64,000 bases of DNA from an uncultured Planctomycetaceae bacterium (GTDB taxonomy: Bacteria > Planctomycetota > Phycisphaerae > SM23-33). Made by a program: the position numbers and the translations under genes. Position 1 is the stretch's first letter; each line of letters starts with the position of its first letter. The notes under the pieces were generated by a model that did not search any database, was not told where the DNA came from, and worked only from the letters and a program-made list of their open reading frames with translations. The stretch covers positions 784 through 64,783 of the forward strand of contig CAZXOC010000003.1 in the NCBI GenBank assembly GCA_964642165.1, in the 5' to 3' direction. Shown here piece after piece: positions 17,552 through 51,774 of the stretch.

Positions 17552-17652
17552 GGGCTACCCGTGCATTGGGGTGCAACGTTCCGGTACCGCTCGCCGACGC
17601 CGGACGTTACAATGAGATGGGCCGGCCCGGCGCACCGCGCCACCGGAAGGAC

Positions 17653-19911: not shown

Positions 19912-19939
19912 GGGCTCGATGGAACGTCCCGGCCGCCGT

Positions 19940-23110: not shown

Positions 23111-23604
23111 CACCCGCGGAGGAGGAGTTGGCCGCAGCGCTCGGCCGGCTCGCCCCCGCACGGCCGCGCATCGACCGCGACCGGCTCCTGTTCCTCGCCG
23201 GGCGGGCCTCGGCCCGTCGGGCCCTGCGCGGCTGGCAGGGCGCGGCGGCGGCGATGGCGGCCTGCCTTGCGGCGGCGATCGCGCTGCGTCCGGCCGCGCC
23301 CGGGGTGCCTCCCGTCGTCCCGAGCCCCGCGGCGCCCGTGGTTGCCCGTCACCCCGCCGCGCCGGAGGCCGAGCCCTGGCCCGCGCTGGCGGCGGCCGTG
23401 GCGCCGCGCGGCGGCTACGCCCGCCTGCGCGACGACGTGCTCCGCCGCGGCGTGGCGGCCCTGCCCCCCATGGGCGAGTCCCGCCGCGAGGGCGACCCGC
23501 TGACGCTGGCCGATGCCCGGCAGGCCCCGGCGCTGCGCCGGGCCGACCGGGCCGGCCTGTCCATCGTGTGGAGCTTCCTTCTTCCCGGGAGGGCGAACCC
23601 ATGA
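23089..23604 (+). CDS. Putative anti-sigma factor (single-pass membrane protein)
   Basis: Overlaps the sigma gene 3' end by 22 nt. N-terminal cytoplasmic segment, central hydrophobic helix AAAMAACLAAAIAL, Pro/Ala-rich periplasmic tail. The call is by position and topology only. Confidence 0.4.
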   Translation: MPQEERLTPAEEELAAALGRLAPARPRIDRDRLLFLAGRASARRALRGWQGAAAAMAACLAAAIALRPAAPGVPPVVPSPAAPVVARHPAAPEAEPWPALAAAVAPRGGYARLRDDVLRRGVAALPPMGESRREGDPLTLADARQAPALRRADRAGLSIVWSFLLPGRANP

Positions 23605-24992: not shown

Positions 24993-25003
24993 GCCCTCCG
25001 CCC

Positions 25004-30412: not shown

Positions 30413-32755
30413 TCAGACGGTCAGGCGCACGTAGAGGCTCGGCAGCACGCGCGGAAGCTGCCGGATGTCCGGCAGGATGACGAACCGCCGCCGGGGAAAC
30501 ATGATCTCCATGTCGGGAAGGCTGTTCTCCTCCGTCGAGATGCCGAACGTGTGGATCGTCTTGCGGTCGTTTTCCTCGCAGGCCATGCGGACGTCGTACT
30601 GGGCGTGGCGAGTGTTGGGGTCGTAGCGGTCGTCCATCGGCCGCCCGTCGGTGATGAGGATGATCAGGCGCTGCCTGGCGTCGACGCGGCCGAGGCGGAA
30701 GCCCGCGTGCCGCAGGGCGGGCCCGATCCGCGTGCAGTTCAGCGGGTACGCCGACAGGACGCGCCCGATGCTGTCTCGTCCCCACGCTTCGTCGAAGTCT
30801 TTGTAGACGAAAAACGCGCAGTTCTCCGGCCCGTTGGAGTGGAACCCGCAGATGCTGAAGCGGTCCCCCAGGCTCGCCAGCCCCTGCCCGAGGATCAGCG
30901 CGGCGTGCTTCTCGATCTCGATGATGCGTTTGCGGTCGGACAGCTCTTCCGCCGTCGAGCCGCTGGCGTCGAGGACGATCTCCACGGCCAGGTCGCGGCG
31001 GTTGATGCGGGGCTTCTCGTAGAAGCGGACCTTCGGGGAGGGCTCCTTGCGGCGCTGCACGAGGTAGTCGACCAGCAGGTCGGCGTTGATCTGCTCGCCT
31101 TCCTGGAGGTACTTCTCGCGGCGGGTCAGGTCCGGCTTGAGGCGCTCGAAGACGCGCCCGACGCGGCGGGCCTCGCTGGTGATGTCCGGCGGGATGGGCT
31201 GCTCGCCGGCCTGCTCGGGCACCTTCTCGTAGACGAAGCAGTAGTCGCGGTAGTAGTCGCCCTCCTCGTGGCTCCATTCGTCGTAGACGTAGCAGACCCG
31301 GGCCGCCTCGGCGCGATCCGCCTCCTCCTGCTCGCCCGAGCCCTCGCGGGCCTCGTCGGCTGCCTGGGCGGCCGCGTCCTCCCCGGCGCCCTCATCCCGG
31401 CGCCTGTGGTGCTGTTCCGCCGCACGCTTGAGATCAGCCACCAGGCTCCCACGCGGGGCCGCCGAAACGCCCCCGGGAAAGAGGAAGTCCGGCAGGAACG
31501 CGAACGGCCGAAGGAGATCGCCCGCCAGGCCCGGACAGTCCCGGGCGACCTGCTCGGCCAACTCGCCGTCGAGCTGCCGGACCGTGTCAAAGAAGTTCAC
31601 CGACCCGTCCGCCAGGCGCAGCAGCGCGGCGACGCCCGGGGCCTGTGCCGCATCGGACCTCGCCGCGTCATGGAACAGGCGCTCCGCCGCGGACGCCGGC
31701 GGGCGCCACCGGAACTCCTCCCGCAGGGCGAAGTCGATCAGCCGCCGGGAGCCCGGCCAGCGGGCCCGCACGCGACGCAGCACGCGCACGTACTCGGCGA
31801 TCTGGAAGAGGTTCAGGCGAAGCGAATCGCTCCCGACGACCTCCCGGCACGTGCGGTGGCCTTGCAGGCCGTGCACGCGGCAGAAGCTGTCCTCGGCGAT
31901 CATCCCCGCCGCGACCACGCTCGCCAGCAGGTACCACTTCCGGTTCACCGCCGCGTCGTCGAAGTAGCGGATGCGGCTGGGCACGTACAGCCACTTGTAG
32001 AGACATACCAGCGAGCAGCCGCGCTCGATCAGGTCGTCGGAGTCCAGCCGCCCCAGCTCGCAGACCTCGATCTCGCGCCCGGTGAGGGCCTTGAGCAGGG
32101 CCGACATGATCGGATGAACGTCGTCGAGGCGGCACTCCCGCGTGATGCGCAGGATGTACGTTTCGGACGTCTTGAGCCTGCCCTCCAGGAAGGCCAGGGC
32201 CTTGGGCTTGCTCCTGCGGAAGATCTCGAGGCCCGCGTCGATGTAGAGGCCGATCTCCTCGGGGCGCAGGCGGTCGATCAGGCGGCGGTAGCCCTTGATG
32301 AAGGCCACGGCGAGGTCATCGTCGGTTTCCCGCAGGCGGCGCGCGTGGGTGACGAGGTCGCGGACCTGGTCGGGGCGCTCTCCCAGCCCGCCCGTCCCCA
32401 GCGTGCGGAACAGCGTGATGCCGTAGTGCAGGCGGGCGTTGGCGAGTTCCTGGCCGAGGTCGACGATGTCGACGAAGACGCCGGGCAGGTCCAGCAGCCA
32501 GCGCATGCGCGGGTTGAGCGCCGCGAGGAATTCCTTCAGGACGTGGTCGAAGCAGCGCTGGTCGGCCTGCTTCATCAGCTCGAAGAAGCGCCGCGTGACC
32601 TCCTGTCGCTCCGGGCCGATGAGCCCCTGTCGCAGGAGCCCGTCGATCGCCCGGGCGAAGATCTCGCGGTAGCCCCAGCAGACGCTCCGCAGCGTGAAGC
32701 CGTGGTACCCGTCGCCGCCTCGCGCGGGCGGCGTGCTAGGGCTCGGCGGGTCCAT
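30413..32755 (-). CDS. CbbO/NorD-like protein with a C-terminal von Willebrand A (VWA) domain
   Basis: 780 aa. Long helical N-terminal region, acidic linker, C-terminal VWA with MIDAS DASGS (VLDASGSTAE) and ..LIILITDGRP.. Start overlaps the upstream AAA+ gene by 20 nt. Confidence 0.7.
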   Translation of the reverse strand: MDPPSPSTPPARGGDGYHGFTLRSVCWGYREIFARAIDGLLRQGLIGPERQEVTRRFFELMKQADQRCFDHVLKEFLAALNPRMRWLLDLPGVFVDIVDLGQELANARLHYGITLFRTLGTGGLGERPDQVRDLVTHARRLRETDDDLAVAFIKGYRRLIDRLRPEEIGLYIDAGLEIFRRSKPKALAFLEGRLKTSETYILRITRECRLDDVHPIMSALLKALTGREIEVCELGRLDSDDLIERGCSLVCLYKWLYVPSRIRYFDDAAVNRKWYLLASVVAAGMIAEDSFCRVHGLQGHRTCREVVGSDSLRLNLFQIAEYVRVLRRVRARWPGSRRLIDFALREEFRWRPPASAAERLFHDAARSDAAQAPGVAALLRLADGSVNFFDTVRQLDGELAEQVARDCPGLAGDLLRPFAFLPDFLFPGGVSAAPRGSLVADLKRAAEQHHRRRDEGAGEDAAAQAADEAREGSGEQEEADRAEAARVCYVYDEWSHEEGDYYRDYCFVYEKVPEQAGEQPIPPDITSEARRVGRVFERLKPDLTRREKYLQEGEQINADLLVDYLVQRRKEPSPKVRFYEKPRINRRDLAVEIVLDASGSTAEELSDRKRIIEIEKHAALILGQGLASLGDRFSICGFHSNGPENCAFFVYKDFDEAWGRDSIGRVLSAYPLNCTRIGPALRHAGFRLGRVDARQRLIILITDGRPMDDRYDPNTRHAQYDVRMACEENDRKTIHTFGISTEENSLPDMEIMFPRRRFVILPDIRQLPRVLPSLYVRLTV

Positions 32756-33614
32756 CGCCCGCGCCCTCCATCAGCTCGCCGAAGTAGAGCTTGACGATGT
32801 GGTTGATGGACTCGGCGACCTCGGCCTCTTCGGTGAGCGTCTGGGTGATGGCGGCGTTGCAGGCCTTCAGCGGGTCCAGGCCCGCCTTCATCAGCCGGCC
32901 GACGTAGACCAGCAGCCGCGTGCTGACCCCCTCGTCGAGGCCGAAGCCCTTCAGCTCCCGCGTCTTGGCGCCCATCTCGGCGAGTCGGCGGCCCTCGGCC
33001 TCCGACAACCCGGTCTCCGTTTGTATGATTCGCGACTCGACGTCGATCGCCGGGTGCGTGAAGGTCAGGCTGGCGAAGCGCTGCTTGGTGGAGTGCTTCA
33101 GGTCCTTGACGATGCTCTGGTAGCCCGGGTTGTAGCTGAGCACCATCATGAAGTCCGGCGCGGCGCGGATCACCTCGCCCGTCTTGTCGACGTAGAGGAT
33201 CCGCCGGTCGTCCGTCAGCGAGTGGATGATGACGGTGGTGTCCTTGCGGGCCTCCACGATCTCGTCGAGGTAGCAGATGCCCCCGTAGCGCACGGCGAGC
33301 GTCAGCGGGCCGTCCTGCCAGACCGTCTGCTCGTCCTTGAACAGGTACCGCCCGACGAGGTCCCCGGCCGTCAGGTCCTCGTGGCACGAGACCGTCACCA
33401 GCGGCAGATCCAGCACGTGGGCCATGTACTCGATGAACCGCGTCTTGCCGCAGCCGGTCGGGCCCTTGATGATCAAGGGGATGTCGCTGTCGAAGGCCGT
33501 CCGGAAGACCTCTTCCTCGTCGTTCTGGGGGATGTAGTTGGGCCGGGCCCGCACGCGGAACTGGTCGATCGTCTTCCGTGCGTCGCTGGTGGGTTGTGTC
33601 TTACGGTTCGTCAC
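32736..33614 (-). CDS. CbbQ/NorQ/MoxR-type AAA+ ATPase (AAA_5)
   Basis: Walker A GPTGCGKT, Walker B ICYLDEI, sensor motifs. About 292 aa if the GTG at 33614 is the start (no in-frame ATG; it lies 9 nt after the radical-SAM stop). The rest of the 580-aa track ORF is a spurious extension. Confidence 0.65.
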   Translation of the reverse strand: MTNRKTQPTSDARKTIDQFRVRARPNYIPQNDEEEVFRTAFDSDIPLIIKGPTGCGKTRFIEYMAHVLDLPLVTVSCHEDLTAGDLVGRYLFKDEQTVWQDGPLTLAVRYGGICYLDEIVEARKDTTVIIHSLTDDRRILYVDKTGEVIRAAPDFMMVLSYNPGYQSIVKDLKHSTKQRFASLTFTHPAIDVESRIIQTETGLSEAEGRRLAEMGAKTRELKGFGLDEGVSTRLLVYVGRLMKAGLDPLKACNAAITQTLTEEAEVAESINHIVKLYFGELMEGAGDGPAEP

Positions 33615-33622
33615 GATGCCAC

Positions 33623-34555
33623 CTATTCCGAGGCCGCTTCGGCCGCGCTGTAGTACACCTCGGCGCCCATCTGCGTCCCCACGAGCAGGCCCAGGCCGTC
33701 GAGCTTCTCCAGGTACTTCAGCACCTCGACCCGCCTCATGCTCAGGCCCTCGGCGACGTCGCGCACGCGGCAGGGGCGCCTGCGGAGCAGCGCGAGGACC
33801 TGCTGCTCGTCGACGTCGTCCGCCTCGGCGGCCTCGTCCTCGGTGGCCGAGTCCCAGATCACCTCCGCCGTCGGGTGGAACAGCTCGGCCAGCCGGCGGA
33901 GCTCCTCCCGAGGCACGGGGCGCGCGAAGTCCTCCGCGGGCGGGCGGGTCACCGTGTTCAACTGGACGCGGTCCGGGCGGATGGCCTCGACGCACTCGGC
34001 GATCTGCTCCACCTCCGACTCGATGCCCGTGTGCCCGCCCAGCAGCATCACCTCCAACCAGTACTCGCCGGGAAACTCGGCGCGGAAAGCTGCCAGGCCG
34101 CCGACGACCCGCTCGAACGACAGCCCCTCGGCCGGCCGATTGACGGCCTGGAACATGCCCTCGCCGCCGGCGTCGAGCGACGGGACGATCAGGTCGGCGC
34201 CCATCAACTCCGCACGGACGTCCTCGCGCCACAGCAGCGAGCCGTTGGTCAGGACCGCCACGGGCGTTTCGCCCATTGCCTGGATGCCCTCGATCAGCTC
34301 GCCGGTCCGGGAATACAGCGTCGGCTCGCCCGAGCCGCTCAGCGTGACGTAGTTGGCCCCGCACCCGATGCGGGCCTCCACGTCGGCCAGCACGTCCGCC
34401 AGCGGCACCCACTCCTTTCGCTCGGTCGTCCGGCACGTCGTGCGCCCGAGCTGGCAGTAGATGCAGTCGTACGTGCACGTCTTGAACGGCACCAGGTCGA
34501 CGCCCAGCGACCGGCCGAGCCGCCGCGAGGGTACGGGGCCAAAAACGTGACTCAT
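33623..34555 (-). CDS. Radical SAM protein (COG0731-like, NifB/MoaA-related Fe-S enzyme)
   Basis: N-terminal GPVPSRRLGRSLGVDLVPFKTCTYDCIYCQ (CxxxCxxC cluster motif), SGSGEPT glycine-rich SAM motif, 310 aa. Confidence 0.75.
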   Translation of the reverse strand: MSHVFGPVPSRRLGRSLGVDLVPFKTCTYDCIYCQLGRTTCRTTERKEWVPLADVLADVEARIGCGANYVTLSGSGEPTLYSRTGELIEGIQAMGETPVAVLTNGSLLWREDVRAELMGADLIVPSLDAGGEGMFQAVNRPAEGLSFERVVGGLAAFRAEFPGEYWLEVMLLGGHTGIESEVEQIAECVEAIRPDRVQLNTVTRPPAEDFARPVPREELRRLAELFHPTAEVIWDSATEDEAAEADDVDEQQVLALLRRRPCRVRDVAEGLSMRRVEVLKYLEKLDGLGLLVGTQMGAEVYYSAAEAASE

Positions 34556-34594: not shown

Positions 34595-34834
34595 TCAGCC
34601 GTCCAGGTCACACTGGCCGCAGGGCGTGTCGCGCCCGCAGCAGGTCGTATCGCGCCCGCAGCGGATTGCCGAGGAACCGCCGGCGCCTTTCACGATCACG
34701 GCACCGCCCGTGCCGATCAGGCGCCGGACGCGCCCGCCGCACTCGCTGCACGTCCGGACCGGCTTGTCGGTCATGTTCTGGAACTGCTCGAAGCGCCGGC
34801 CGCACTTCGTGCACTCGTAGTCATATGTCGGCAT
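34595..34834 (-). CDS. FmdB-family zinc-ribbon protein
   Basis: MPTYDYECTKCGRRFE...PVRTCSECGG (CxxC...CxxC zinc ribbon), 79 aa with a Gly/Cys-rich tail. Confidence 0.6.
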   Translation of the reverse strand: MPTYDYECTKCGRRFEQFQNMTDKPVRTCSECGGRVRRLIGTGGAVIVKGAGGSSAIRCGRDTTCCGRDTPCGQCDLDG

Positions 34835-34890: not shown

Positions 34891-36144
34891 TCAGTGGTCA
34901 CAGAGGTTCCCGCCCGTCGTCAGCGTGCCGCCGAGGTAGGCCGCGACCAGTTCCGCCGGTTCCTGCGCCGAGGCGCCCACGACGACCGCGATCCCGCTGG
35001 CGGCGAAGAGCTGCTGGGCCCGGCTGCCCATCCCGCCGGCGATGATCACCTCGGCGCCCATTTCGTGAAGCCAGCGGGGCAGCGCGCCGGGCTCGTGCCC
35101 CGGCGGCGTGTGCTTCGTCGTCTCAAGGACTTGCCCGGTCGACGCGTCCACCTCGATGATGGCAAATTCCTCGCAGTGCCCGAAGTGGGCACTCAGCCGC
35201 CCCGCCGCCAAGGGAATCGCGATCTTCATGCGATGGTTCTCCTGCTGGGGTTTCTCCAGGTCGGTTGATCCCCCCTCCTTCGGCTCGTCCGGTGCGATCT
35301 TGCGCACGATCTCAGCGAAGGCGGCCGCGGCCGCCGAACCGTCAGATGCCTCGATGAACGGCGCGCCTGCATCGCCCGCGGCGACGATGGCCGGATCGAT
35401 GGGGATGCGCCCGAGGAACGGCACGCCCGCCTCGCGGGCCAGCGCCTCGCCCCCGCCGGACCGGAACAGGTCCACGCGGTGGCCGCACTGCGGGCAGACG
35501 TACCCGCTCATGTTCTCCACGATGCCCGCCACCGGCAGCGACAGCGCCCGGCAGAACGACACGCAGCGGCGCACGTCGGAGATCGCCAGGTCCTGCGGCG
35601 TGGTGACGACGACGGCGCCGGCGGGCTGACCGACGAGCTGGGCGACCGTGAGCGGCTCGTCGCCCGTGCCCGGCGGGGAGTCGATGACGAGGTAGTCCAG
35701 CCGCCCCCACGTCACGTCGGTGAGGAACTGGCGGATCGCGCCGAACTTGCGAGGCCCGCGCCAGATGATCGCCTCGTCGCCGTTGGCCAACAGGAACCCG
35801 ATGGACATGACGGCGAGATGGTCATCGACCTGGACGGGCACCATCTCCCCCTCCTTGAGGCCGACCGGCCGGCCCGTCAGCCCCAGCAACTGCGGGATGC
35901 TCGGCCCGTGCACGTCGACGTCGAGGAGCCCGACCTTCCTGCCCGCGCGGGCCAGTGCCACGGCCAGATTCGCCGCCACCGTGCTCTTGCCCACGCCCCC
36001 CTTGCCCGACAGCACCAGCAGCTTCTGCCCGATGCGTTCCATGCGGCTGCGCAGCATCAACTGCTGCCTCTCGCGTTCGGCCGGGTCCGGGCCCTGCGCC
36101 GACGGGCGCGAAGGCGGGGGCTGTTTCGGAGACGAGTCCGTCAT
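34891..36144 (-). CDS. Mrp/ApbC/NBP35-family Fe-S cluster carrier ATPase fused to a C-terminal NifX/NafY-type (Nitro_FeMo-Co, PF02579-like) domain
   Basis: RBS AGGAG 11 nt upstream of the ATG at 36144 (MTDSSPKQ..). Walker A VLSGKGGVGKST, ferredoxin-like CPQCGHRVDLF Cys pair. C-terminal MKIAIPLAAGRLSAHFGHCEEFAIIEVD...IIAGGMGSRAQQLF matches dinitrogenase FeMo-cofactor-binding-domain proteins. Confidence 0.75.
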   Translation of the reverse strand: MTDSSPKQPPPSRPSAQGPDPAERERQQLMLRSRMERIGQKLLVLSGKGGVGKSTVAANLAVALARAGRKVGLLDVDVHGPSIPQLLGLTGRPVGLKEGEMVPVQVDDHLAVMSIGFLLANGDEAIIWRGPRKFGAIRQFLTDVTWGRLDYLVIDSPPGTGDEPLTVAQLVGQPAGAVVVTTPQDLAISDVRRCVSFCRALSLPVAGIVENMSGYVCPQCGHRVDLFRSGGGEALAREAGVPFLGRIPIDPAIVAAGDAGAPFIEASDGSAAAAAFAEIVRKIAPDEPKEGGSTDLEKPQQENHRMKIAIPLAAGRLSAHFGHCEEFAIIEVDASTGQVLETTKHTPPGHEPGALPRWLHEMGAEVIIAGGMGSRAQQLFAASGIAVVVGASAQEPAELVAAYLGGTLTTGGNLCDH

Positions 36145-36175
36145 GTGATTTACAACTCCTGGGGGCCCGAGGTCC

Positions 36176-37087
36176 TCAAGTTTCATCGAACAGCCGGGCC
36201 GAGACGGCTTGCCAGAGCCCGCGCACATCGGACGCGGCCCCATCGCGGGCGTACTCCACGATGGACTGCCTGTGGACCTGGGCTTCCGTCACGCCCGGAT
36301 CATACCGCACGCGTCCCAAGGCCGACACGCCTCGGTCCGCCGCCGCCGCCTCGACCTGGGCGGCGACGTCGTCGTTCAGGTCCCACTTGTTCACGCACAC
36401 CGCCGCCGGGATGCCGAAGTGCTTCGCCAGGTCCGCGACGCGAGAGAAGTCGTGCAGGCCGCTCAGCGTCGGCTCCGTCACGATCAACACGAAGTCCGCC
36501 GCCGAGATCGAGGCGATCACCGGGCAGCCGATCCCCGGCGAGCCGTCGATCAGGACGAGCTTCTTGTGGTTCCGGTCGGCGATCTTCTTGGCCTCCGTCC
36601 GCACGAGACTGACCAGCTTGCCGGAGTTCTCCTCGGCCACGCCGAGCTTCGCGTGCACCATCGGCCCGTGCCGCGTGTCCGAGACGAACCACTCGCCGTT
36701 CACGACCGGCGCGAACTCGACGGCGTCGTACGTGCAGAAGTACGCGCAGACACCGCAGCCCTCGCAGGCGATCGGGTCGACGCGGAACGTCCGGTCGACG
36801 CGGCCGTTGCCGGGGCCGTCATAGAAGACGGCGTCGAACCGGCACACCTCCTCGCACTTCCCGCAGGCCGTGCAGTGACCCGGCATGATCCGCGCACGCG
36901 AGCCGCCCGAGAACTTCTCCCGCCGGCGGACCGTCGGGGCAAGCACGAGGTGCAGGTCGGCCGCGTCCACGTCGCAGTCCGCCAGCACCACCTCTTCCGC
37001 CAGCGCCGCGAAGGACGCGACCAGAGACGTCTTGCCCGTGCCCCCCTTGCCGCTGATGACGACCAGTTCCTTCATCCGATCAGACAC
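36176..37087 (-). CDS. MinD/CooC/ParA-like P-loop ATPase with an inserted 2x[4Fe-4S] ferredoxin domain
   Basis: Deviant Walker A ISGKGGTGKTS. Cys motifs CTACGKCEEVC and CEGCGVCAYFC. Second nucleotide-binding half IDGSPGIGCP. Confidence 0.7.
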   Translation of the reverse strand: MSDRMKELVVISGKGGTGKTSLVASFAALAEEVVLADCDVDAADLHLVLAPTVRRREKFSGGSRARIMPGHCTACGKCEEVCRFDAVFYDGPGNGRVDRTFRVDPIACEGCGVCAYFCTYDAVEFAPVVNGEWFVSDTRHGPMVHAKLGVAEENSGKLVSLVRTEAKKIADRNHKKLVLIDGSPGIGCPVIASISAADFVLIVTEPTLSGLHDFSRVADLAKHFGIPAAVCVNKWDLNDDVAAQVEAAAADRGVSALGRVRYDPGVTEAQVHRQSIVEYARDGAASDVRGLWQAVSARLFDET

Positions 37088-37105: not shown

Positions 37106-37963
37106 TCATGGCTCAGCCGTGCCCGTCAGGTCGCGCAGTTGCGACAGCAGTTTCTCGAACAGCGCCGCGTAGCCGTCGACGGCGCGGCAGGCCAGCTCGC
37201 CGCGCGAGTACGCCTCGGCGATCCGCCGGTCGTCGGGAATCTCCGCCAGCACGTCGATGCGATGCGTCCGGCAGAATGCCGTCGTCTCGGCGTCCCCGAC
37301 GTCCGCGCGGTTGATCACCACGCCGAACGGCATCTTCAACGCCCGCGTCATCTCGACCGCCAGCTTCAGGTCGTTCAGGCCGAACGGCGTCGGCTCCGTC
37401 ACGAGGAGCACGTAATCGCAGCCGCGCACGCTCTCGATCACCGGGCAGGACGTCCCCGGCGGGACGTCGTAGATCATGACGTCCCCGTCGGAGGCGGCCG
37501 CCTTCGTCGCCCGGATCAGCGGCGGGCTCATTACTTCGCCCACGTTCAGCAGCCCCTGAACGAACTGCACGTCGCCGGCGCGCCCGGTCTCGACGCGCCC
37601 GGTCACGCGCTGCGTTTCCGTGATGGCGTTCACGGGGCAGACCAGCCAACAGCCGCCGCACGAATGGCACAGCTCGGGGAACACGAGCACCTTCTCGCCC
37701 ACGCAGACGATCGCGCTGTACTGACAGATCTCGCCACACTTGCCGCAGAGGATGCACGTGTCCGCCGCCACCTCGGGCACGCTGCCGCCCACGGGCTGAC
37801 TGGTCGCGATCTCCGGCTTGAGGAACAGGTGGCCGTTGGGTTCCTCGACGTCGCAGTCGAGATAGCCGACGCTCCGGCCCGCCCCGGCGGCCACGAACGC
37901 GAGGTTGGTGGCCACCGTGGTCTTGCCGGTGCCGCCCTTTCCGCTGGCGACGGCAATTCTCAT
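37106..37963 (-). CDS. MinD/CooC/ParA-like P-loop ATPase with inserted 4Fe-4S ferredoxin domain (paralog)
   Basis: VASGKGGTGKTT; CILCGKCGEIC and CHSCGGCWLVC; YDVPPGTSCP. Adjacent to and 19 nt from its paralog. Confidence 0.7.
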   Translation of the reverse strand: MRIAVASGKGGTGKTTVATNLAFVAAGAGRSVGYLDCDVEEPNGHLFLKPEIATSQPVGGSVPEVAADTCILCGKCGEICQYSAIVCVGEKVLVFPELCHSCGGCWLVCPVNAITETQRVTGRVETGRAGDVQFVQGLLNVGEVMSPPLIRATKAAASDGDVMIYDVPPGTSCPVIESVRGCDYVLLVTEPTPFGLNDLKLAVEMTRALKMPFGVVINRADVGDAETTAFCRTHRIDVLAEIPDDRRIAEAYSRGELACRAVDGYAALFEKLLSQLRDLTGTAEP

Positions 37964-37993
37964 AGCTGACTCATCTGTTCGGGGGCTGTGGCG

Positions 37994-38581
37994 TCAGCGG
38001 TTTTGGCCGCCACCGCCCATGCCGCCGCCACCGCCCATGCCGCCGCCGCGGCCCATGCCGCCGCCACGACCCATGCCGCCGCCACGACCCATGCCGCCGC
38101 CGCGGCCCATGCCGCCGCCGCGTCCCATACCGCCGCCGCCCATGCCGCCGCCCATGCCCGGCGTGCCGCCGGGCGGCATGGGCTGCTGGGCGGGCGGGGC
38201 CTGGGCGGCCCCGGGCTGGGCGATGCCGAAGTGGCTCGGCACGTTCGGCTGATCGGTGGCCTGAAGCTGGTCGCTCTTGAACTGCTCCACCACCGCCAAG
38301 ACCGGCCCCATGCAGCCCACGATGACGCCAATCCCCGCCGCGCTCAACGTCTGGTAGGCATTGGGCCCGCAGTTGCCGGTCAGCAGCACCTGTACGCCCT
38401 TTTCGGCCATCAACTGCGCCGACTGGATCCCCGCGCCGCTGCCGGCAGTGATGCTCGGGTTCTCGATCGCCTCGTGCTCCATCGTGTCTGTCTCCACGAT
38501 CAGGAAGCACGGGCACCGCCCGAACCGGGGGTCAACGTCGGCGTCCATCGACGGAGCCGTAGCTGTCACCGCGATCTTCAT
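37994..38581 (-). CDS. NifB/NifX-type (Nitro_FeMo-Co) domain protein with a C-terminal Gly/Met-rich repeat tail
   Basis: MKIAVTATAPSMDADVDPRFGRCPCFLIVETD...GVQVLLTGNCGPNAYQTL (PF02579-like), followed by (GGGMGR)n: ...MGGGMGGGGMGRGGGMGRGGGMGRGGGMGRGGGMGRGGGMGGGGGMGGGG, encoded by an 18-nt DNA repeat at about 38030-38150. Confidence 0.65.
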   Translation of the reverse strand: MKIAVTATAPSMDADVDPRFGRCPCFLIVETDTMEHEAIENPSITAGSGAGIQSAQLMAEKGVQVLLTGNCGPNAYQTLSAAGIGVIVGCMGPVLAVVEQFKSDQLQATDQPNVPSHFGIAQPGAAQAPPAQQPMPPGGTPGMGGGMGGGGMGRGGGMGRGGGMGRGGGMGRGGGMGRGGGMGGGGGMGGGGQNR

Positions 38582-38666: not shown

Positions 38667-39053
38667 TCACGGTTCCTTCGCCTGGCCCTGAAGCTCCTCG
38701 ATACGCTTCTTGATCCCGTCGAGCGCGTCCTCGAAGTACTCCACCTGGCCCTGGAGCGCCGCGAGCTCTTGCTCCTTGCTCATGGCCGCCCCTGCCGGTG
38801 CCGCCGGCCAGGCGCCCGCCGGCATGGGCGCGGCGCCTCCGTAGGCCGGCCAGCCCGCCGCGGCACGCTGCCAGCCAGGCATCCCGGTTGCGTAGAACCA
38901 GTTCCGCCGGCCTCGCCCGCCGCCGCCCCAGCCGAAGCCTCGCCCCCCCACGGGGTTCATGTACCCGGGCATGGGATAGCCCGCGCAGTACCCGGCCGCA
39001 CGTCCTGTCATGGGACCCATTCCCCCCGGGCCCGTTCCATCACCACCTGGCAT
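38667..39053 (-). CDS. DUF5320-like protein (Gly/Pro/Met-rich N-terminus plus C-terminal coiled coil)
   Basis: MPGGDGTGPGGMGPMTGRAAGYCAGYPMPGY... N-terminus typical of DUF5320. C-terminal SKEQELAALQGQVEYFEDALDGIKKRIEELQ coiled coil. Confidence 0.55.
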   Translation of the reverse strand: MPGGDGTGPGGMGPMTGRAAGYCAGYPMPGYMNPVGGRGFGWGGGGRGRRNWFYATGMPGWQRAAAGWPAYGGAAPMPAGAWPAAPAGAAMSKEQELAALQGQVEYFEDALDGIKKRIEELQGQAKEP

Positions 39054-39067
39054 CTTCTTGCTCCTTG

Positions 39068-39952
39068 TCAGTTTGCTTGCGGGGACCCGTTCACCGGTGC
39101 CCGGGCCGATCGCCGCGCGACCAGGCTATTCACCTCGCAGCCCAAGTCTTGGGCGATCACCGGACACTTCGCCTTAAGAATGAAGAAGATCTCCCTCGGC
39201 ACGTCGCTGAGGGTTTCGTAGTTGCCTTGGCCCTTGGCGACGATCAGGTCGGCCCGGTCGAACCGGCGGCGGAAGGCCTCGCTGCAATCGCCCAGGATCG
39301 TCCCCGGCGCGTCGCTGCCGTTGTCGATCACCTCGACCAGGCCGGTCAGTCCGGCGGCCTCGGCGTCGGCTCGCGTCGCGTCGTTGATGACCGGTGCGCC
39401 CTTGACGGCGACGGCGACCTTTTCGGTCGGAAGCCGCTCCAGCAGCAGCCGGTCGAAGACCAGCTCTCCCGCGTTGTCGCCCAGGTAGAGGACCTCCTCC
39501 GCCCGCGCCACGGCGCTGCCGAAGCCGTCCAGGTCCGCCTCCAGCGGGGCGGCCAGCGCGTGCGCCACGCCGTCCCGGACCTTGGCTTCGTCCATCTCGC
39601 CATCGACGCCGAAGTCGATCACGTTGCCCGCGATGGCCAGGCGGACGGCCGTCTCCAACGGGGCCGGCGAGGCGTCCACCTTCGCCTTGAGTCCGGGATA
39701 CATCGCCAGCGCAACGCGCGTGAAGTGGTCCTTGATGTCGCGATACGGGTCGTTTACGCCGGTCAGTCGGCGGATCATGCGCTGGATCCGCTGGCCCATA
39801 GCCGGGGGAGACTGCCGGAGGTCCATCTCCGCCGCGGCGCGGAGCACCTCCCGGAGCACCTGCTCGTGGACGGCCTCGTCGTCGGTCACCAGTCGGGCCG
39901 CGTCCAGGGCCTGACGGACGAAACACGGGATGCAGTCGAAAAACGTCCTCAT
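39068..39952 (-). CDS. DUF89 (ARMT1-like, metal-dependent damage-control phosphatase fold) protein
   Basis: MRTFFDCIPCFVRQ N-terminus, conserved DNAGE motif (LYLGDNAGELVFD) and KGQGNYE motif (LIVAKGQGNYETL). Confidence 0.65.
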   Translation of the reverse strand: MRTFFDCIPCFVRQALDAARLVTDDEAVHEQVLREVLRAAAEMDLRQSPPAMGQRIQRMIRRLTGVNDPYRDIKDHFTRVALAMYPGLKAKVDASPAPLETAVRLAIAGNVIDFGVDGEMDEAKVRDGVAHALAAPLEADLDGFGSAVARAEEVLYLGDNAGELVFDRLLLERLPTEKVAVAVKGAPVINDATRADAEAAGLTGLVEVIDNGSDAPGTILGDCSEAFRRRFDRADLIVAKGQGNYETLSDVPREIFFILKAKCPVIAQDLGCEVNSLVARRSARAPVNGSPQAN

Positions 39953-39961
39953 GCCTGTTCC

Positions 39962-40324
39962 TTACAGCCAGTGGCCTTCCACGTCGGGCTTGTCGACGAG
40001 CGACAGCCGGCCGGCCTTCAGGGCCTCCACCGCGTCTCGGACCGAGCCCTGCGCACCGACGTAGACCTTGACGCCGCCGGCCTGAAGCGTACGGAACGCC
40101 TTCGGGCCGACGTGGCCCGTCACGATCGCCTCCGCGCCCAGGTCGATGACGTTCTGCGCCGCCTGGATGCCGGCGCCCTGGAGGGCGTTGAGGTTCTGCG
40201 AGTTGTCGTGCGCCGTGGCCTGGCCCGTGTCGGTGTCCACGAGCACGAACGCCTTGGCCCGCCCGAATCGCGGGTCGACGGGGCTTGCCAAGTCGGTCCC
40301 TTGAGCCGTGATTGCCGCTTTCAT
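39962..40324 (-). CDS. NifB/NifX-type (Nitro_FeMo-Co) single-domain protein
   Basis: MKAAITAQGTDLASPVDPRFGRAKAFVLVDTDTGQ...AIVTGHVGPKAFRTLQAGGVKVY. The start at MKAAI is in frame 15 codons into the track ORF, whose upstream ATG is at 40369. Confidence 0.65.
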   Translation of the reverse strand: MKAAITAQGTDLASPVDPRFGRAKAFVLVDTDTGQATAHDNSQNLNALQGAGIQAAQNVIDLGAEAIVTGHVGPKAFRTLQAGGVKVYVGAQGSVRDAVEALKAGRLSLVDKPDVEGHWL

Positions 40325-40394: not shown

Positions 40395-40775
40395 CTAGAG
40401 GCCGCCGCGCCAGCCGCGACCGCGACGCCCGCCGCCGCGCTGCCGGCGGCCGAAGCCCCGACCGAAGCCCATGCCGCCCGAAGCCGCGCCGACCACCGGC
40501 CCGCCCTGGATGGCCAGGGCCTGCCCGTCCACGAGGGCGCGGGCGACCTTCGATCGCCCCGACGCCAGGATCCGCGTCACGGTCGGGCGGGAGACGCCCA
40601 TCCTCGCCGCCACCGCCTCCTGGTCCAGGCCCTCGCCGTCGACCAGGCGGATCGCCTCGAACTCGTCCAGCCCCAGGGTCGTCCACTGAAGCTGGCGTGC
40701 GGGCACGCCAGCGGGCTTGTAGACCGTCACGCCGGGCCGGCCGGCGATTATGCGTTGTTTCGGGGGGCGGGACAT
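40395..40775 (-). CDS. DUF134 (UPF0251) family predicted DNA-binding regulator
   Basis: MSRPPKQRIIAGRPGVTVYKPAGVP...LGLDEFEAIRLVDGEGLDQEAVAARMGVSRPTVTRILASGRSKVARAL (sigma-70 region-4-like HTH). Gly/Arg-rich tail. First gene behind the promoter/operator. Confidence 0.7.
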   Translation of the reverse strand: MSRPPKQRIIAGRPGVTVYKPAGVPARQLQWTTLGLDEFEAIRLVDGEGLDQEAVAARMGVSRPTVTRILASGRSKVARALVDGQALAIQGGPVVGAASGGMGFGRGFGRRQRGGGRRGRGWRGGL

Positions 40776-41348: not shown

Positions 41349-41786
41349 TCAGTCCCTCGGCGGCAGGGCGGCGACGTGGAGCCAGAAGTGATCGATGGCC
41401 TGGATCACCCGCATGAACTCCTCCAGGTCCACGGGCTTGGCGACGTAGCAGTTGCAGTTGAGGTCGTAGGCCTGGAGGATGTCCTGCTCGGCCTCGGACG
41501 TGGTCAGGACGATAACGGGAATCCTCCGCAGCTTCCTGTCGGCCTTGATCTCGACGAGGACCTCGCGCCCGTCCTTCCTGGGGAGGTTCAGGTCCAGCAG
41601 GACCAGGTCGGGTGTCGGGGCATGCCGGTGCGGGCCCTCTCGCCGCAGGAACTGCAGGGCCTCCTCCCCGTTGGCGACCACGTGGAGGTGGTTGACCAGC
41701 CCTCCCTCGCGGAAGGACTCCCGCACCAGGCGAACGTCGCCGGGGTTGTCCTCCACCAACAGGATCTCAACGGACTTGCTGCTCAT
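41349..41786 (-). CDS. Receiver-only response regulator (CheY-like)
   Basis: ILLVEDNPGDVRLVRE (phospho-acceptor pocket), [14 protein letters not shown] (D phosphorylation site), VIVLTTSEAEQD, AYDLNCNCYVAKP. The start at MSSKSVE is in frame inside the 174-aa track ORF. Confidence 0.75.
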   Translation of the reverse strand: MSSKSVEILLVEDNPGDVRLVRESFREGGLVNHLHVVANGEEALQFLRREGPHRHAPTPDLVLLDLNLPRKDGREVLVEIKADRKLRRIPVIVLTTSEAEQDILQAYDLNCNCYVAKPVDLEEFMRVIQAIDHFWLHVAALPPRD

Positions 41787-41880
41787 GGGCGGCTCCGAGT
41801 CACCGGGCCGGGCGCGGGGCGTGCGCCGGCCGCGGCGGGGGGATCGCCCGGCCCGGCACGCGGGCAGGATCACCCGACGG

Positions 41881-42327
41881 TCAGCCCTCGGGCTGCTCCA
41901 CGATTCCCGACCAGTAGCCCTTCAGCAGCGTGACGATGCCGATGAGCTGCTCGATGTCCACCGGCTTGGTGATGTAGGACTTCGCGCCCAGGTCGAAGGT
42001 CTGGAGGATGTCGGCGTCCTCGTGAGACACCGTCAGGATGACGACCGGGATCTGCTTGAAGTCCTGGTCGGCGGCGATCTCGGCGAGGACCTCGCGCCCG
42101 TCCTTCCTGGGCAGGTTCAGGTCCAGCAGGATCAGGTCCGGGCGGGGCGCATCGGCGTGGGGGTCTTCTCGGCGCAGGAAGGCCATGGCCTCGATCCCGT
42201 CCTGGACGATGTGGAGGTGGTTGGCGATCCGGCCGGAGTTCAGCGCCTCCTGCGTCAGGCGGACGTCGCCGGCATTGTCCTCGACCAGGAGGATCTCGGC
42301 CGGCCTGCCCATCATGTGCTCAGTCAT
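41881..42327 (-). CDS. Receiver-only response regulator (CheY-like), paralog
   Basis: [56 protein letters not shown] overlaps the histidine-kinase stop (ATGACTGA). Confidence 0.75.
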
Positions 42328-44608
42328 GGCTGGTTGGCTCCTTTTTCGGCAAGGTGAAGTAGAAGGTGGCCCCCTGGCCGGGCTCGGACTCGACCCAGAT
42401 GCGCCCGCCGTGGCGCTCGACGATCCTCTTGCAGACGGCCAGCCCGATCCCGGTCCCGGGGCACTCGTCTCGTCCGTGCAGGCGCTGAAAGATGACGAAG
42501 ATGCGCTCGTGGTACTTCGGCTCGATGCCGATGCCGTTGTCGCGGACGGCGAAGCGCCACATGTCGCCGGCCGGCTCCGCCGAGAGATGCACCTTCGGCG
42601 GCGCGTTGCCTCGGTACTTGATGGCGTTGCTGAGGACGTTCTGCAGCAACTGCCCGAGCTGCGTGGCGTCGGCCATCACCTCGGGCAGCTCGCCCCGGGT
42701 CACCTCGGCGCCCGCCTCGCGGATCGACGGCCGCAAGTCGGCCAGCACGCCGTCCAGGACGCCGCCGGAGTCGGTGGGTTCGAGCCGGTGGCCGCGCGTC
42801 CGCACGCGGGAGTAGGCCAGCAGGTCGGTGATGAGCACCTGCATGCGCTTGGCGCCGTCCACGGCGAAGTGGATGAAGTCGTCCGCGTCGGGGTCGAGCT
42901 TGCCCCGGTAGCGCCGGGCCAGGAGCTGCACGTAGCTCGACACCATGCGGAGCGGCTCCTGGAGGTCGTGGCTCGCCACGTAGGCGAACTGCTCCAGCTC
43001 CGCGTTGGATCGGGCCAGCTCCGTCTCGGCTTCCTTCCGCTTGGCGATGTCGCTCGCCACGCAGACGATGCCCTGAAGGTCGCCCTGCTCGTCCCGCATG
43101 ACGGAGGCCGAGAACGACACCGGGATCGCCCGCCCGTCCCGGGTCCGGTAGTCCGTCTCGAAGTCCGCGACGGCGCGTTCCTCGAGGATCGTTTCCAGCC
43201 CGGGGCCCCCGAAGGGGTCGTCGCCCGCCAGGATGCTCGCGAAGGGCCGGCCCACCAGCTCGTCCTCCTCGTAGCCCAGCAGCGCGCACGCGGCGGCGTT
43301 GGCCCGCTCGATGACGCCTTCCGGGGAGACGATCATCAGCGTGTCGACCATGCTCCGCAGGATGTTCTCCATGTAGGAGCGGGAGACGGTGGTCTCCTGG
43401 AGGCGTCCGGCCATCTCGTTGAAGTACCGCCCGAGCTGCCCGATCTCGTCGCGAGAGCGGTCCCGCGTCCGCGCGCCCAGGTGGCCCTCCCCGATCTCGA
43501 CCGCGGCGTTTCTCAGGCGGCTGAGACGCCGCGAGATCGATACCGACATCAGCGTCCCGAGCGTCAGGCCGGCGCCCGTCACCGCCACGGCGAGGAACAG
43601 GATCTCGTCCCGCAGGCGCGTGACGGGCGCGAAGATCTCCTCCATGCGATACTCCAGGGCGATCCGCCACTTCGGCGCGCGGTAGCGGACCTCCCCGCCG
43701 CCCCGCGAGAAGGCGCAGACGGCCAGAACCTCGCCCAGCCTGTCGTCGTGCCGCAGGAACGTCCGCACGCCGCCCTCGGCACGCCGGGCCAGGCCCTCCA
43801 GGTACGGCGAGCCGTCGCGCGGGCCCGTGAAGGGCTGGTCCGAGGAGAACAGGATCTTGTCGTCGGCGGTGAACAGCCGCAGGCACGGGTGGGTCGGGTC
43901 CTCGAGGGAGGAGCCCGCCTGCGCGACCCGGGCCTCCAGGACGCGGATGATGCCCTGGATGTCGAAGACGGCCTTCAGCACGCCGAGGAACTCGCCGTCC
44001 TCGCTGTCCACGCGCAGGCAGATGTCCGTGGCGTACACGCCGGCGCTGAGGTCGTAGGCGAAGTCGCGGACGTAGATGCCCTGGTCTCTCGCCCGCTGCC
44101 ACCACTCCTCGTCGTCCTGGCGGTAGTCGGACGTCCGCCCGGACAGCGACACCGTCGCGCCGTACCGGTTCGTGACGAAGACCTCGCCGAAGACGCGGTA
44201 CCCATGGATGCGCTCCAACGCCGCCAGCCGCCTCTTCAGGTCGACCGAAAGCTCGTTGAGCAGCAGGCTGCTCATGTGGGGCGTGAGGACCCCTCGCCCG
44301 GCCGTCTGCCACTCGCGGTCCTGGCGCTCGATGTACCCCTGGACGTCGGGCAAGTCGTCGAACAGGCGGTTGGACTGCTCCAGGCTCCCCCGCAGCAGCG
44401 GGTCGGTGCAGTAGACCCGCCACTCGTCGATGGCGGAATAGACCGTCCGGTCCACCTCGTCGAGGATCTCGTAGACCAGGCTGGCGGACGTCCTCTCGAT
44501 GGACCGGCGCAGCGCCCGCCGGCTGACGGCCACGGCATACAAGCCCACCGCCCAGATCAGCAGGGCCAGCACGACCGACACCAGGAACAACTTGTGCGCG
44601 GTCTTCAT
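42320..44608 (-). CDS. Membrane sensor histidine kinase (periplasmic sensor, HAMP, PAS, HisKA, HATPase_c)
   Basis: TM helix [21 protein letters not shown], a second TM before the HAMP-like region, PAS ([36 protein letters not shown]), H-box [14 protein letters not shown] boxes (NAIKYRG.., [15 protein letters not shown]). Confidence 0.8.
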
Positions 44609-44783
44609 GCCCGAAGCTCCCACCGGACGAACGACTTCCAGGCACGGCCAAACGACATCCCGGCACGAGGCCCGGCGCCCGGCGCCTCCTTCGCACCTGC
44701 TCCCCCGATGCGCGGGGCCCAGTATGGATGCCGCCGCGGCGTTCGTCAACGGCGTCGGCGCGCGCCGGCGGGGGGCGTCGGCC

Positions 44784-51562: not shown

Positions 51563-51650
51563 GCCGGCGAACACGCGGCGGCGAACGCACGCGGGGAACA
51601 CGGCGCGGGGAACACGGCGCGGGGAACACGGCGCGGGGAACACGGCGGGC
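51563..51650. repeat. Tandem 14-nt repeat (gcggggaacacggc, four perfect plus about two degenerate copies) in an intergenic region
   Basis: Perfect copies at 51591-51604, 51605-51618, 51619-51632 and 51633-51646. Degenerate copies (cggcgaacacgcgg / cggcgaacgcacg) at about 51563-51590. Confidence 0.7.
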
Positions 51651-51719
51651 AAGCCCGCCCGCTAAACGATGCGGTTGCGTCGCGGCGCTTGGCGGCGAGT
51701 TTAGCGGCGGGGCTTGCCC
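51647..51719. terminator. Long imperfect inverted repeat (21-bp arms, about 31-nt loop) followed on the plus strand by a polypyrimidine tract; candidate terminator for the minus-strand gene ending at 51775
   Basis: Arm gggcaagcccgcccgctaaac (51647-51667) pairs with gtttagcggcggggcttgccc (51699-51719). A CT-rich tract follows at 51725-51770. Function is inferred only from position. Confidence 0.35.
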
Positions 51720-51774
51720 CGCGCTTCCTTCTTTCCCCTCCCCGCGCTTTCTTCTTCCCCCCCTCCGCGCGTCG

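Follow-up and report, generated by a model that had tools for sequence, protein, structure and literature searches.

IssA (PF2025) of Pyrococcus furiosus consists of a domain of the family IPR003731, a Pro-rich region and an unstructured tail that is cationic, aromatic and Gly-rich, with an isoelectric point (pI) of 10.7 (Vaccaro et al. 2017). The protein yields nanoparticles of iron sulfide and is able to restore the [4Fe-4S] cluster in ferredoxin, and its authors propose that the tail wraps an anionic thioferrate, (FeS2-)n; the same study termed MTH1175 an IssA-type protein and gave the name 'IssX' to an uncharacterised clade from non-thermophiles with Gly-rich tails (Vaccaro et al. 2017). 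The orange protein (ORP), of the same superfamily, was found on isolation to contain a Mo/Cu sulfide cluster, which has been under study since 2000 or earlier; it holds this anionic cluster, [S2MoS2CuS2MoS2]3-, without covalent bonds. In Desulfovibrio vulgaris the ORP complex is formed by Orp3 and Orp4 (MinD-like, with 2x[4Fe-4S] motifs), Orp5, Orp8 (the orange protein) and Orp9 (MrpORP). Through its Mrp/NBP35 domain, MrpORP passes Fe-S clusters to its ORP partners; it is reported to have a polar localisation in D. vulgaris, and the physiological role of the system is described as putative in the literature consulted. NifX, a third relative, binds NifB-co in a positively charged pocket, and in the 2026 NifEN-NifX cryo-electron microscopy (cryo-EM) structure the cluster sits in this pocket beside the HFG loop, with His35 as ligand. 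Here we describe a gene in a 64-kb stretch of DNA of contig CAZXOC010000003.1 (the window), whose product joins an IPR003731 domain to a Gly/Met/Arg-rich repeat tail. From the comparisons set out below, this tail is best read as a bacterial counterpart of the IssA tail, a variant with Met in place of the aromatic residues that is set in an ORP system.

The tailed gene is made up of the following parts, with positions given in amino acids (aa) for the protein and the evidence in brackets (AF2, AlphaFold2; pLDDT, predicted local distance difference test; TRF, Tandem Repeats Finder).

37994..38581, minus strand: the tailed gene, encoding a 195-aa ORP/MTH1175-type NifX-like protein with a Gly/Met/Arg tail (list of open reading frames, Pfam, identical protein on two other metagenome contigs)
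37994-37996, minus strand: stop codon of the tailed gene
38270..38581, minus strand: Nitro_FeMo-Co (IPR003731) domain, aa 1-104 (Pfam, AF2, Foldseek)
38156..38269, minus strand: Pro/Gln/Ala-rich spacer, aa 105-142 (composition, low pLDDT)
37997..38155, minus strand: polycationic (Gly-X)n tail, aa 143-195 (composition, pLDDT, conservation in homologues)
38006..38152, minus strand: 18-nt tandem DNA repeat, 8.3 copies, encoding MGRGGG units (TRF, codon-level units)

The open reading frame (ORF), the Pfam match to Nitro_FeMo-Co (aa 13-102, E-value 1.6e-24, 86.4 bits against a cut-off of 26.3) and the exact sequence of the tail bear out an earlier note on this DNA, which had described a NifX-like protein with a C-terminal Gly/Met-rich repeat tail. 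The tail, MGGGMGGGGMGRGGGMGRGGGMGRGGGMGRGGGMGRGGGMGGGGGMGGGGQNR (aa 143-195), has strictly 53 residues, and reaches the approximately 60 first counted if the preceding PPGGTPG is included. It is composed of 36 Gly (68%), 9 Met and 6 Arg among others, contains neither acidic nor aromatic residues, and has a pI of 12, whereas the whole protein has a pI of 6.06, as the acidic domain offsets the charge of the tail. With the spacer, where 9 Pro and 7 Gln are found within 38 residues, the extension beyond the domain comes to 91 aa. The AF2 model, built on a 55-sequence alignment, has pLDDT values of at least 90 for aa 1-112, which fall below about 60 beyond this point (below 50-60 for spacer and tail, below 50 for the tail), and the spacer and tail are without secondary structure, in keeping with intrinsic disorder. 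The tail is thus predicted to be an intrinsically disordered arm on a cofactor-carrier domain, one of the alternatives that the note had proposed. The N-terminus starts straight at the first strand of the domain, and by inspection nothing resembling a signal peptide is found there.

At the DNA level, TRF finds a single array with period 18, 8.3 copies, 89% matches and a score of 210, which agrees with the six or more 18-nt units counted earlier, although its coordinates had to be corrected to 38006-38152. This is the top-scoring tandem repeat of the window, with the runner-up scoring 117. The five central MGRGGG units, in which the distance between Met residues is 6, vary by synonymous changes alone (GGA CGC / GGC CGC / GGT CGT), and degenerate MGGG(G)(G) units are found on both sides of them. 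The frame of the gene is secure, since the same tail is kept by homologues in genomes with a GC content of 0.39-0.70. A plus-strand ORF of 115 aa at 37905-38252, which reads PPPMPPPRPMPPPRP (PPPMPPPRP...), was rejected as a mirror of the repeat and not a gene, and two more minus-strand ORFs in other frames also overlap the repeat stretch. A scan of the whole window against Rfam gave nothing at the gathering score, so the repeat is not explained by an RNA element. An assembly artefact is ruled out by the identical 195-aa protein, in the same gene order, on independent contigs of two other JGI metagenomes, which over 8-9 kb match the window at 99.4% and 99.9% identity. In one of these contigs 42 substitutions are seen, just one of which (synonymous) falls within the tailed gene, and all three near-identical copies have equal numbers of repeat units.

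The tail had been called unusual, a view that the searches for homologues do not support. The whole protein gave 3666 matches, and each of the 120 best has a G/M/R region of 30-85 residues that starts near residue 135-158. This search is biased by the tail itself and was therefore repeated with the domain alone against 1.84 billion representatives, which gave 4291 matches with a clear G/M/R region in 79 of the best 150; several others of these 150 show frame-shifted readings of the region, or pass directly into a coiled coil. A scan of one genome per species yielded at least 544 relatives confirmed by clade motifs, and the 80 best of their loci, on which all locus counts given here (synteny, tails, repeats) are based, come from Planctomycetota (top identity 74%), Desulfobacterota, Chloroflexota, Nitrospirota, Hydrogenedentota, Zixibacteria and others. 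The tail is found in nearly all of these 80 loci, over the same range of genomic GC (0.39-0.70). It is thus conserved in anaerobes of many phyla and is no one-off. In four database homologues (P0125, P0185, P0245, P0269) the NifX-like domain is followed by strings of the kind AAVWAVAAVWAAV or VWAWAEVW, which look like GMGRG-coding repeats read out of frame, suggesting that gene callers or assemblies often mis-frame such tails.

The composition of the tail is also conserved. In 270 pooled tails Gly accounts for 57%, Met for 16.4% and Arg for 13.9% of the residues, with Lys at 0.5%, acidic residues at 0.4%, aromatic residues at 0.9%, and His and Cys almost nil. Met and Arg are nearly always flanked by Gly (GMG 1600 times, GRG 1390 times), and the Met-Met and Arg-Arg spacings are overwhelmingly even, which gives a (Gly-X)n register. 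The composition is steady from genomes with GC below 0.48 to those above 0.58, with Arg:Lys above 20 even in AT-rich genomes, and this rules out a low complexity driven by GC content. Tail length ranges from 30 to 92 aa across relatives and the repeat unit varies freely: 69 of the 80 orthologues have an in-frame tandem repeat of their own, with lineage-specific units, and its period is a multiple of 6 nt (two codons) in 67 of these 69. The tails are therefore remade by slippage time and again, with selection maintaining the composition and the two-residue register. The earlier expectation that such repeats are prone to slippage is in this way confirmed between species, whereas at the strain level, where a variable copy number had been suggested, the three near-identical copies show none.

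The comparison with IssA was made with nine Thermococcales-type IssA proteins, retrieved from metagenomes by the N-terminus that the published PF2025 primer encodes, which stand in for PF2025 itself. All nine pass from the domain through a Pro-rich spacer into a (G-W/F-G-R)n tail, for example GLGWGRGRGRGFGRGWGRGGRGWGARLGYCPWTG...FGWW, with Arg at every second X and Trp/Phe at the positions where the tailed family has Met; their domain is 34% identical to that of our protein (E-value 7e-13). Both kinds of protein combine an IPR003731 domain, a Pro-rich spacer and a disordered Gly-rich tail with a pI of about 12, regularly placed Arg, no acidic residues and a Gly-X-Gly-X pattern. The IssA paper sets the lower limit for the pI of the whole protein at 9 for IssA and 8 for IssX, and asks for fewer than five Cys and for no less than 20% Gly in the last 40 residues (Vaccaro et al. 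2017). In the tailed protein the domain is followed by a Pro-rich region and an unstructured tail with Gly far above 20%, this tail is cationic (pI 12, 6 Arg, no acidic residues), and there are four Cys; the pI of the whole protein and the aromatic content of the tail, which differ, are taken up below. IssA tails use Trp, Phe and Tyr and are capped by GYCPWTG...GWW, which holds the sole Cys of the protein, whereas the tailed protein has four Cys in its domain and an ORP cluster around its gene. Carriers that combine IPR003731 with a cationic, Gly-rich tail were thus described in 2017, and the Met-for-aromatic form is a variant of this kind.

The domain itself belongs elsewhere in the superfamily than its label implies. 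By both sequence and fold, its closest solved relative is the apo orange protein of D. gigas, 2WFB (phmmer E-value 2.6e-21; Foldseek with the AF2 model, template modelling (TM) score 0.92, root-mean-square deviation 0.8 Å, 44% identity), followed by TM1290, PH0822, TM1816 and MTH1175 (E-value 1.7e-16 for the last). The matches to genuine NifX (9IAN chain F, E-value 4e-4) and NafY (1P90, E-value 1e-3) are far weaker. The AF2 model superposes on six solved superfamily members with a probability of 1.00, and its Foldseek match to NifX has an E-value of 4e-4 and 21% identity. A genuine NifX or NafY is also argued against by the loop, which reads RFGRC and lacks the ligand His of the HFG loop, and by the gene context, as no nitrogenase components (nifEN, nifDK, nifB) were found among the 29 window proteins scanned against Pfam or NCBIfam. 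NCBIfam has no model for the tailed protein or for the DUF5320 protein encoded next to it, and gave one sub-threshold match, to the NifX-like part of MrpORP. The tailed protein is therefore a Cys-bearing, tailed paralogue of the orange protein, in the ORP/MTH1175 branch, and 'NifX-like' is for it only the label of the superfamily. ORP is a single domain of 120 aa with neither Cys nor tail, in contrast to the 195 aa, four Cys and 91-aa extension found here.

All four Cys lie inside the domain, and they include Cys23 in the RFGRC loop, Cys71 (GNCGPN) and Cys90 (VGC). These three are invariant in 16 of 16 close homologues, while among 150 broad representatives C23 is present in 120, C71 in 106 and C90 in 42. 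A link between the number of these clade Cys and the presence of a tail is weak, as a tail is found in 3 of the 12 proteins that have no such Cys and in about 55% of the others. The RFGRC loop aligns with the HFGHC motif in the Nitro_FeMo-Co domain of MrpORP. At loop position 19, Arg is found in 137 of the 150 representatives, as in the tailed protein, and His in 3. We infer that His35 of NifX corresponds to this position, so that the HFG-loop ligand has no counterpart in the tailed protein, which has Arg19 and then Cys23 instead. The RFGRC loop is the probable site at which the domain binds a metal-sulfide cluster.

The genes that surround the tailed gene are listed below from the upstream to the downstream side.

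40395..40775, minus strand: DUF134 helix-turn-helix protein (Pfam, E-value 1.1e-22), with C-terminal GGMGFGRGFGRRQRGGGRRGRGWRGGL at aa 100-126 (40398-40478)
39962..40324, minus strand: second NifX-like paralogue, 120 aa, with no tail and no Cys (RFGRA, GHVGPK) (Pfam)
39068..39952, minus strand: ARMT1-like / DUF89 damage-control phosphatase homologue (Pfam, E-value 2.7e-67; recurs in related loci)
38667..39053, minus strand: DUF5320 protein (Pfam, E-value 7e-21)
within 38667..39053, minus strand: N-terminal motif GMGPMTGRAAGYC of the DUF5320 protein
38895-38948, minus strand: (G-R/F/W) stretch of the DUF5320 protein, aa 36-53
38670-38780, minus strand: C-terminal coiled coil of the DUF5320 protein, aa 92-128
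37106..37963, minus strand: MinD/ParA-type P-loop ATPase with an inserted 2x[4Fe-4S] ferredoxin motif, Orp3/Orp4 type (Pfam CbiA, ParA, Fer4)
36176..37087, minus strand: second MinD/ParA-ferredoxin ATPase, Orp3/Orp4 type (Pfam, synteny)
34891..36243, minus strand: MrpORP (Orp9), an Mrp/NBP35 Fe-S carrier with a NifX-like domain that has HFGHCE and CDH motifs (NCBIfam)
34595..34834, minus strand: small Zn-ribbon protein, 79 aa, with the Cys-rich C-terminus CGRDTTCCGRDTPCGQC (Pfam Zn_ribbon_8, E-value 1e-16; recurs in related loci)
33623..34555, minus strand: radical SAM protein with a C-terminal ArsR-like helix-turn-helix (Pfam, weak NCBIfam matches; recurs in related loci)

The MrpORP protein matches the NCBIfam equivalog NF041136 with 529.7 bits, against a cut-off of 450, and together with the two MinD-ferredoxin ATPases it fits the description of the ORP complex, in line with 2WFB being the nearest solved structure. 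The tailed gene sits in an ORP-type cluster for the handling of Fe-S, in an anaerobic and probably planctomycete bacterium. Similarity to ORP and a context of two MinD-ferredoxin ATPases plus MrpORP are thus both found for the tailed protein, while the 120-aa single domain without Cys is not. The latter is found in the untailed paralogue, which is as near to ORP as the tailed protein (E-value 3.8e-21 against 2WFB) and 42% identical to it; as it is Cys-less like ORP, it qualifies better than the tailed protein as the Orp8 (orange protein) orthologue. The small Zn-ribbon protein may be the equivalent of the small [2Fe-2S] Orp5-type protein in the ORP operon. The gene order of the cluster recurs across the 80 loci from many phyla: in most of them a MinD-ferredoxin ATPase comes after the tailed gene, and one or two DUF5320 genes lie upstream of it.

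The earlier note had pointed to the Gly/Met-rich N-terminus of the neighbouring DUF5320 protein, and a relation between this family and the tail is indeed seen in the homologues. Three architectures occur in the clade. The shortest proteins (about 180 aa), among them the present one, end with the tail; in the majority (about 230 aa) it leads into a coiled coil of about 50 aa, and in the longest (about 300 aa) a 2x[4Fe-4S] ferredoxin domain comes after this coiled coil. Around four fifths of the nearest homologues run past the tail into the coiled coil, with or without the 2x[4Fe-4S] module, and the tail-only class is recurrent, with about 20 of the 120 nearest homologues. In the homologues of about 230 aa, positions 7-99 of the 99 in the DUF5320 profile (PF17253) span the tail and the coiled coil, with 39-41 bits against a cut-off of 27 in the three fused proteins P0001, P0013 and P0019. 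Since the profile covers both parts in these fusions, the tail appears, from these alignments, to be the Gly-rich half of a DUF5320 module, of which the coiled-coil half is absent here. The Pfam profile finds no match in the tailed protein, even at E-values up to 10, or in the Thermococcales IssA tails, so the link between tail and DUF5320 comes through the fused homologues only. The tailed protein also differs from the free DUF5320 proteins in having neither their MPxGDGTGP...GYC head nor their coiled coil. The idea that tail-only proteins are compensated by a separate DUF5320 gene was rejected, as separate DUF5320 genes are found upstream of the fused forms too.

Two types of free DUF5320 proteins can be told apart in the related loci (L003-L082), one with a coiled-coil end and the other with a (GRGF)n GRGRGRR end, both with the common head MPxGDGTGPxGMGPMTGRAAGYCAGY. 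Some type-B DUF5320 proteins end in aromatic residues (FGYW, MGW). In related clusters the DUF5320 and DUF134 proteins carry (GRGF/W)n tails; the GGMGFGRGFGRRQRGGGRRGRGWRGGL end of the DUF134 protein in the window is of the same (Gly-X)n type, and similar tails are found on DUF134 homologues of Dehalococcoidia. Three unrelated families of one cluster (NifX-like, DUF5320 and DUF134) thus share a (Gly-X)n tail, in which X is Arg plus Met, Phe or Trp. Mixed W/F/M tails such as FGWGRGMGRGMGRGFGMGRGMG also exist (P0207, P0214), and together with the (GRGF/W)n tails of DUF5320 and DUF134 they indicate that Met and the aromatic residues hold equivalent positions. In the literature searched we found no paper on NifX-like proteins with a G/M/R tail, and DUF5320 is mentioned in only two papers, neither of them functional. 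The links of the tail to DUF5320 and DUF134 have no earlier description in the searchable literature.

On the archaeal side, the IssA-type tails (L083-L091) hold a GYC motif (GARLGYCPWTG) and an aromatic GWW end, like some type-B DUF5320 proteins. The IssA-type genes (L083, L085-L088, L090, L091) are followed by an untailed NifX-like gene where the flanks allow this to be seen, and in two loci a DUF134 gene lies a few kb away, so that gene order is in part shared with the ORP-type clusters of bacteria. The IssA-type loci showed neither MinD-ferredoxin nor DUF5320 genes within the few kb of flank available.

We lean, tentatively, towards an IssA-like role in which the polycationic disordered tail would hold anionic metal-sulfide material or drive assembly. 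The Pro/Gln spacer would project the 53-residue disordered (Gly-X)n tail, with X alternating among Arg, Met and Gly, and the evenly spaced guanidinium groups could bind an anionic inorganic iron-sulfide (thioferrate-like) or a thiometallate formed on, or carried by, the domain. Met may supply the flexible hydrophobic or sulfur contacts that aromatic residues give in IssA. The tail would in this way stabilise the cargo on the domain and, by multivalency, link monomers into larger assemblies, and the protein would work with MrpORP and the MinD-ferredoxin ATPases. It is from the architecture, disorder, conservation, gene context and the parallel to IssA described above that we infer this ligand and the role in assembly. 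The cargos known in the superfamily are anionic (the ORP cluster, and NifB-co in its positive pocket), which fits a metal-sulfide-binding role.

Several points weigh against this reading. The binding of thioferrate by the tail is a proposal even for IssA, the tail-less domain of which already binds Fe and S (Vaccaro et al. 2017), and a later Mössbauer study treats IssA as only a putative storage protein, suggesting instead a detoxifying role through the coordination of insoluble iron sulfides. The pI of the whole tailed protein is 6.06, below the IssA and IssX limits and compared with 9.2-10 in the Thermococcales IssA-type proteins, and its tail has none of the high aromatic content of IssA and no Cys. 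A compensation between acidic domain and basic tail was looked for in the 270 proteins, where no correlation was found (rho -0.05, p 0.41). The G/M/R stretch of most relatives lies inside the protein, ahead of the coiled coil and sometimes a ferredoxin, and could therefore act mainly as a linker. In the literature searched, no experiments were found on any member with a G/M/R tail.

Other explanations have to be considered beside the IssA-like role. The flexible cationic tail might attach to an acidic patch of another protein, be it MrpORP, one of the MinD-ferredoxin ATPases or a client enzyme, and hold the carrier there during cluster handover, which we regard as possible but unlikely. NifX provides the precedent, since it has the same fold and a flexible extension past its carrier domain, and its C-terminus binds NifE tightly by salt bridges while the globular domain is mobile (2026 NifEN-NifX cryo-EM). 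The tail is also disordered, two MinD-type ATPases and MrpORP come after the tailed gene in most loci, and the Desulfovibrio ORP proteins form a five-protein complex. But docking peptides normally keep their sequence, as the specific peptide of NifX illustrates, whereas the low-complexity tail keeps its composition and Gly-X register alone, and IssA-type tails occur in loci that lack MinD-ferredoxin or DUF5320 genes in the available few-kb flank. Rather unlikely, in our estimate, is that the (Gly-X)n tails of the NifX-like, DUF5320 and DUF134 proteins act as stickers and spacers, binding each other, or unfolded or apo clients in the manner of GroEL tails, so that the ORP machinery would be gathered in a condensate or multivalent complex. 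The occurrence of one tail type on three unrelated families of the cluster argues for this, as do the DUF5320 coiled coil, an oligomerisation element, which is added in most relatives, and the reported polar localisation of MrpORP in D. vulgaris. The Gly-Met tails of GroEL are the nearest Gly/Met precedent; they are conserved, disordered C-terminal tails with extended, polyproline II-like conformations, in which flexibility and mild hydrophobicity matter. Still, the GroEL tail has about 13 residues with a (GGM)n period of 3 and no Arg, and acts inside the folding cage, in contrast to 53 residues, a period of 2 and a polycationic character (14% Arg) here. In such an assembly Met might confer sensitivity to oxidation; the Met-rich low-complexity domain of yeast Pbp1 reportedly phase-separates in a redox-sensitive manner. 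Tails of like charge would repel each other unless a polyanion bridges them, and this need for a polyanion leads back to the IssA-like explanation.

That the Gly-rich stretch is a passive linker, which spaces the carrier from coiled coil and ferredoxin and survives here as a slippage-prone remnant after loss of these modules, seems quite improbable. The DNA repeats are clearly prone to slippage and the continuation into a coiled coil, with or without 2x[4Fe-4S], in some four fifths of the nearest homologues would agree with it, but a linker does not account for the preference of Arg over Lys by about 30:1, the exclusion of acidic residues, 14-22% Met at 39-70% GC and the two-residue register that is kept, nor for the repeated occurrence of tail-only proteins. 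We consider it very improbable that the Gly-Arg tail binds RNA or DNA, including G-quadruplexes, in the way of RGG motifs and so links transcripts or the nucleoid with the ORP system. The nucleoid is a frequent place of action of ParA/MinD-type ATPases, DUF134 has a helix-turn-helix, and a survey of G-quadruplex biology in archaea flagged DUF134 and DUF5320 of Methanosarcina mazei for an RG-rich motif of the quadruplex-binding type; against this, the globular domain is a carrier of metal clusters and no nucleic-acid enzyme, and the one characterised tail of this kind, that of IssA, belongs to an iron-sulfide particle protein. Eukaryotic RGG boxes are not known to alternate with Met. The least probable of these explanations, to which we give hardly any weight, is one that the earlier note had raised by analogy with Met-rich motifs, a tail that captures Cu(I)/Ag(I) through thioethers in the manner of Mets-motif proteins (CusF, CopC, Ctr1). 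ORP was isolated with copper in its Mo/Cu sulfide cluster, and the relatives do have many MxM and Mx3M arrangements (a Met-Met spacing of 2 is found 322 times, and of 4, 508 times). In the tailed protein itself the Met residues are 6 apart and flanked by Gly and Arg only, the strong positive charge disfavours cations, His, Cys, Asp and Ser are almost absent, and Phe or Trp replaces Met in the sister tails (IssA, DUF5320, DUF134). Met-only Cu(I) sites are typically periplasmic or extracellular, and the tailed protein has no signal-peptide-like N-terminus by inspection; nor were cop or cus genes found among the neighbouring genes scanned. The features that mark a Mets-motif protein (clustered MxM/MxxM with neighbouring His, Asp or Ser, export, copper genes) are thus not those of this one.

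Directly downstream of the radical SAM gene, the window encodes a CbbQ/NorQ-type AAA+ ATPase (32736-33587, minus strand; AAA_5 E-value 1.5e-31, CbbQ_C E-value 5.9e-25) together with a protein of 780 aa (30413-32755, minus strand) that matches VWA weakly. Pairs of the CbbQ/NorQ and VWA type are known to remodel or load metal centres. This pair was rejected as a conserved part of the cluster, because only 1 of the 80 loci shares it (L014, from another planctomycete, with 70% GC). Upstream of the cluster lie two tandem single-domain response regulators (41349-41873 and 41881-42327, minus strand), about 74% identical at the DNA level, which adjoin a HAMP/PAS histidine kinase (42320-44749, minus strand) with a weak, sub-threshold dCache match. 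These two-component genes occupy the place that the sigma-54 regulator OrpR has in Desulfovibrio; no OrpR was found here, with the DUF134 protein and the two-component system present instead.

Further away, the intergenic space that separates a sulfatase gene from the following gene on the minus strand contains a tandem repeat of 14 nt x 6 (CGGGGAACACGGCG; 51565-51647, TRF score 117), with a further short repeat at 51717-51770. Three large DUF4159 paralogues are encoded at 17566-22480 (plus strand) and 46265-48475 (minus strand), and the adjacent pair on the plus strand also has weak squalene-hopene-cyclase-like matches. The DUF4159, sulfatase, GH9 and GFO/IDH/MocA genes fit a planctomycete-like genome. 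Two adjoining ORFs of 466-474 aa (23568-26404) have no Pfam match.

A bolder idea, which we think improbable, is that (Gly-X)n tails with X being Arg plus Met, Phe or Trp are a code shared by the tailed NifX-like, DUF5320 and DUF134 proteins and by archaeal IssA, which would co-assemble around an anionic iron-sulfide polymer. Anaerobic bacteria would then commonly contain IssA-like bodies for thioferrate storage or detoxification, which the ORP complex and its MinD-type ATPases would build, position or mobilise, and the Met version might be switchable by methionine oxidation.

For annotators, these results are a caution that the tailed proteins are not nitrogenase NifX and that GC-rich repeats of this kind are often mis-framed. 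If the tail were a mere linker, the finding would reduce to a well-described low-complexity region. Among NifX-like proteins, a tail has been characterised in IssA alone, which is restricted, as far as known, to hyperthermophilic archaea, and one paralogue of the bacterial ORP clusters is now seen with an IssA-type tail that has Met for Trp/Phe. Three orphan families would in this way be joined under one experimentally approachable idea, the binding of anionic metal-sulfide or assembly driven by the tails.

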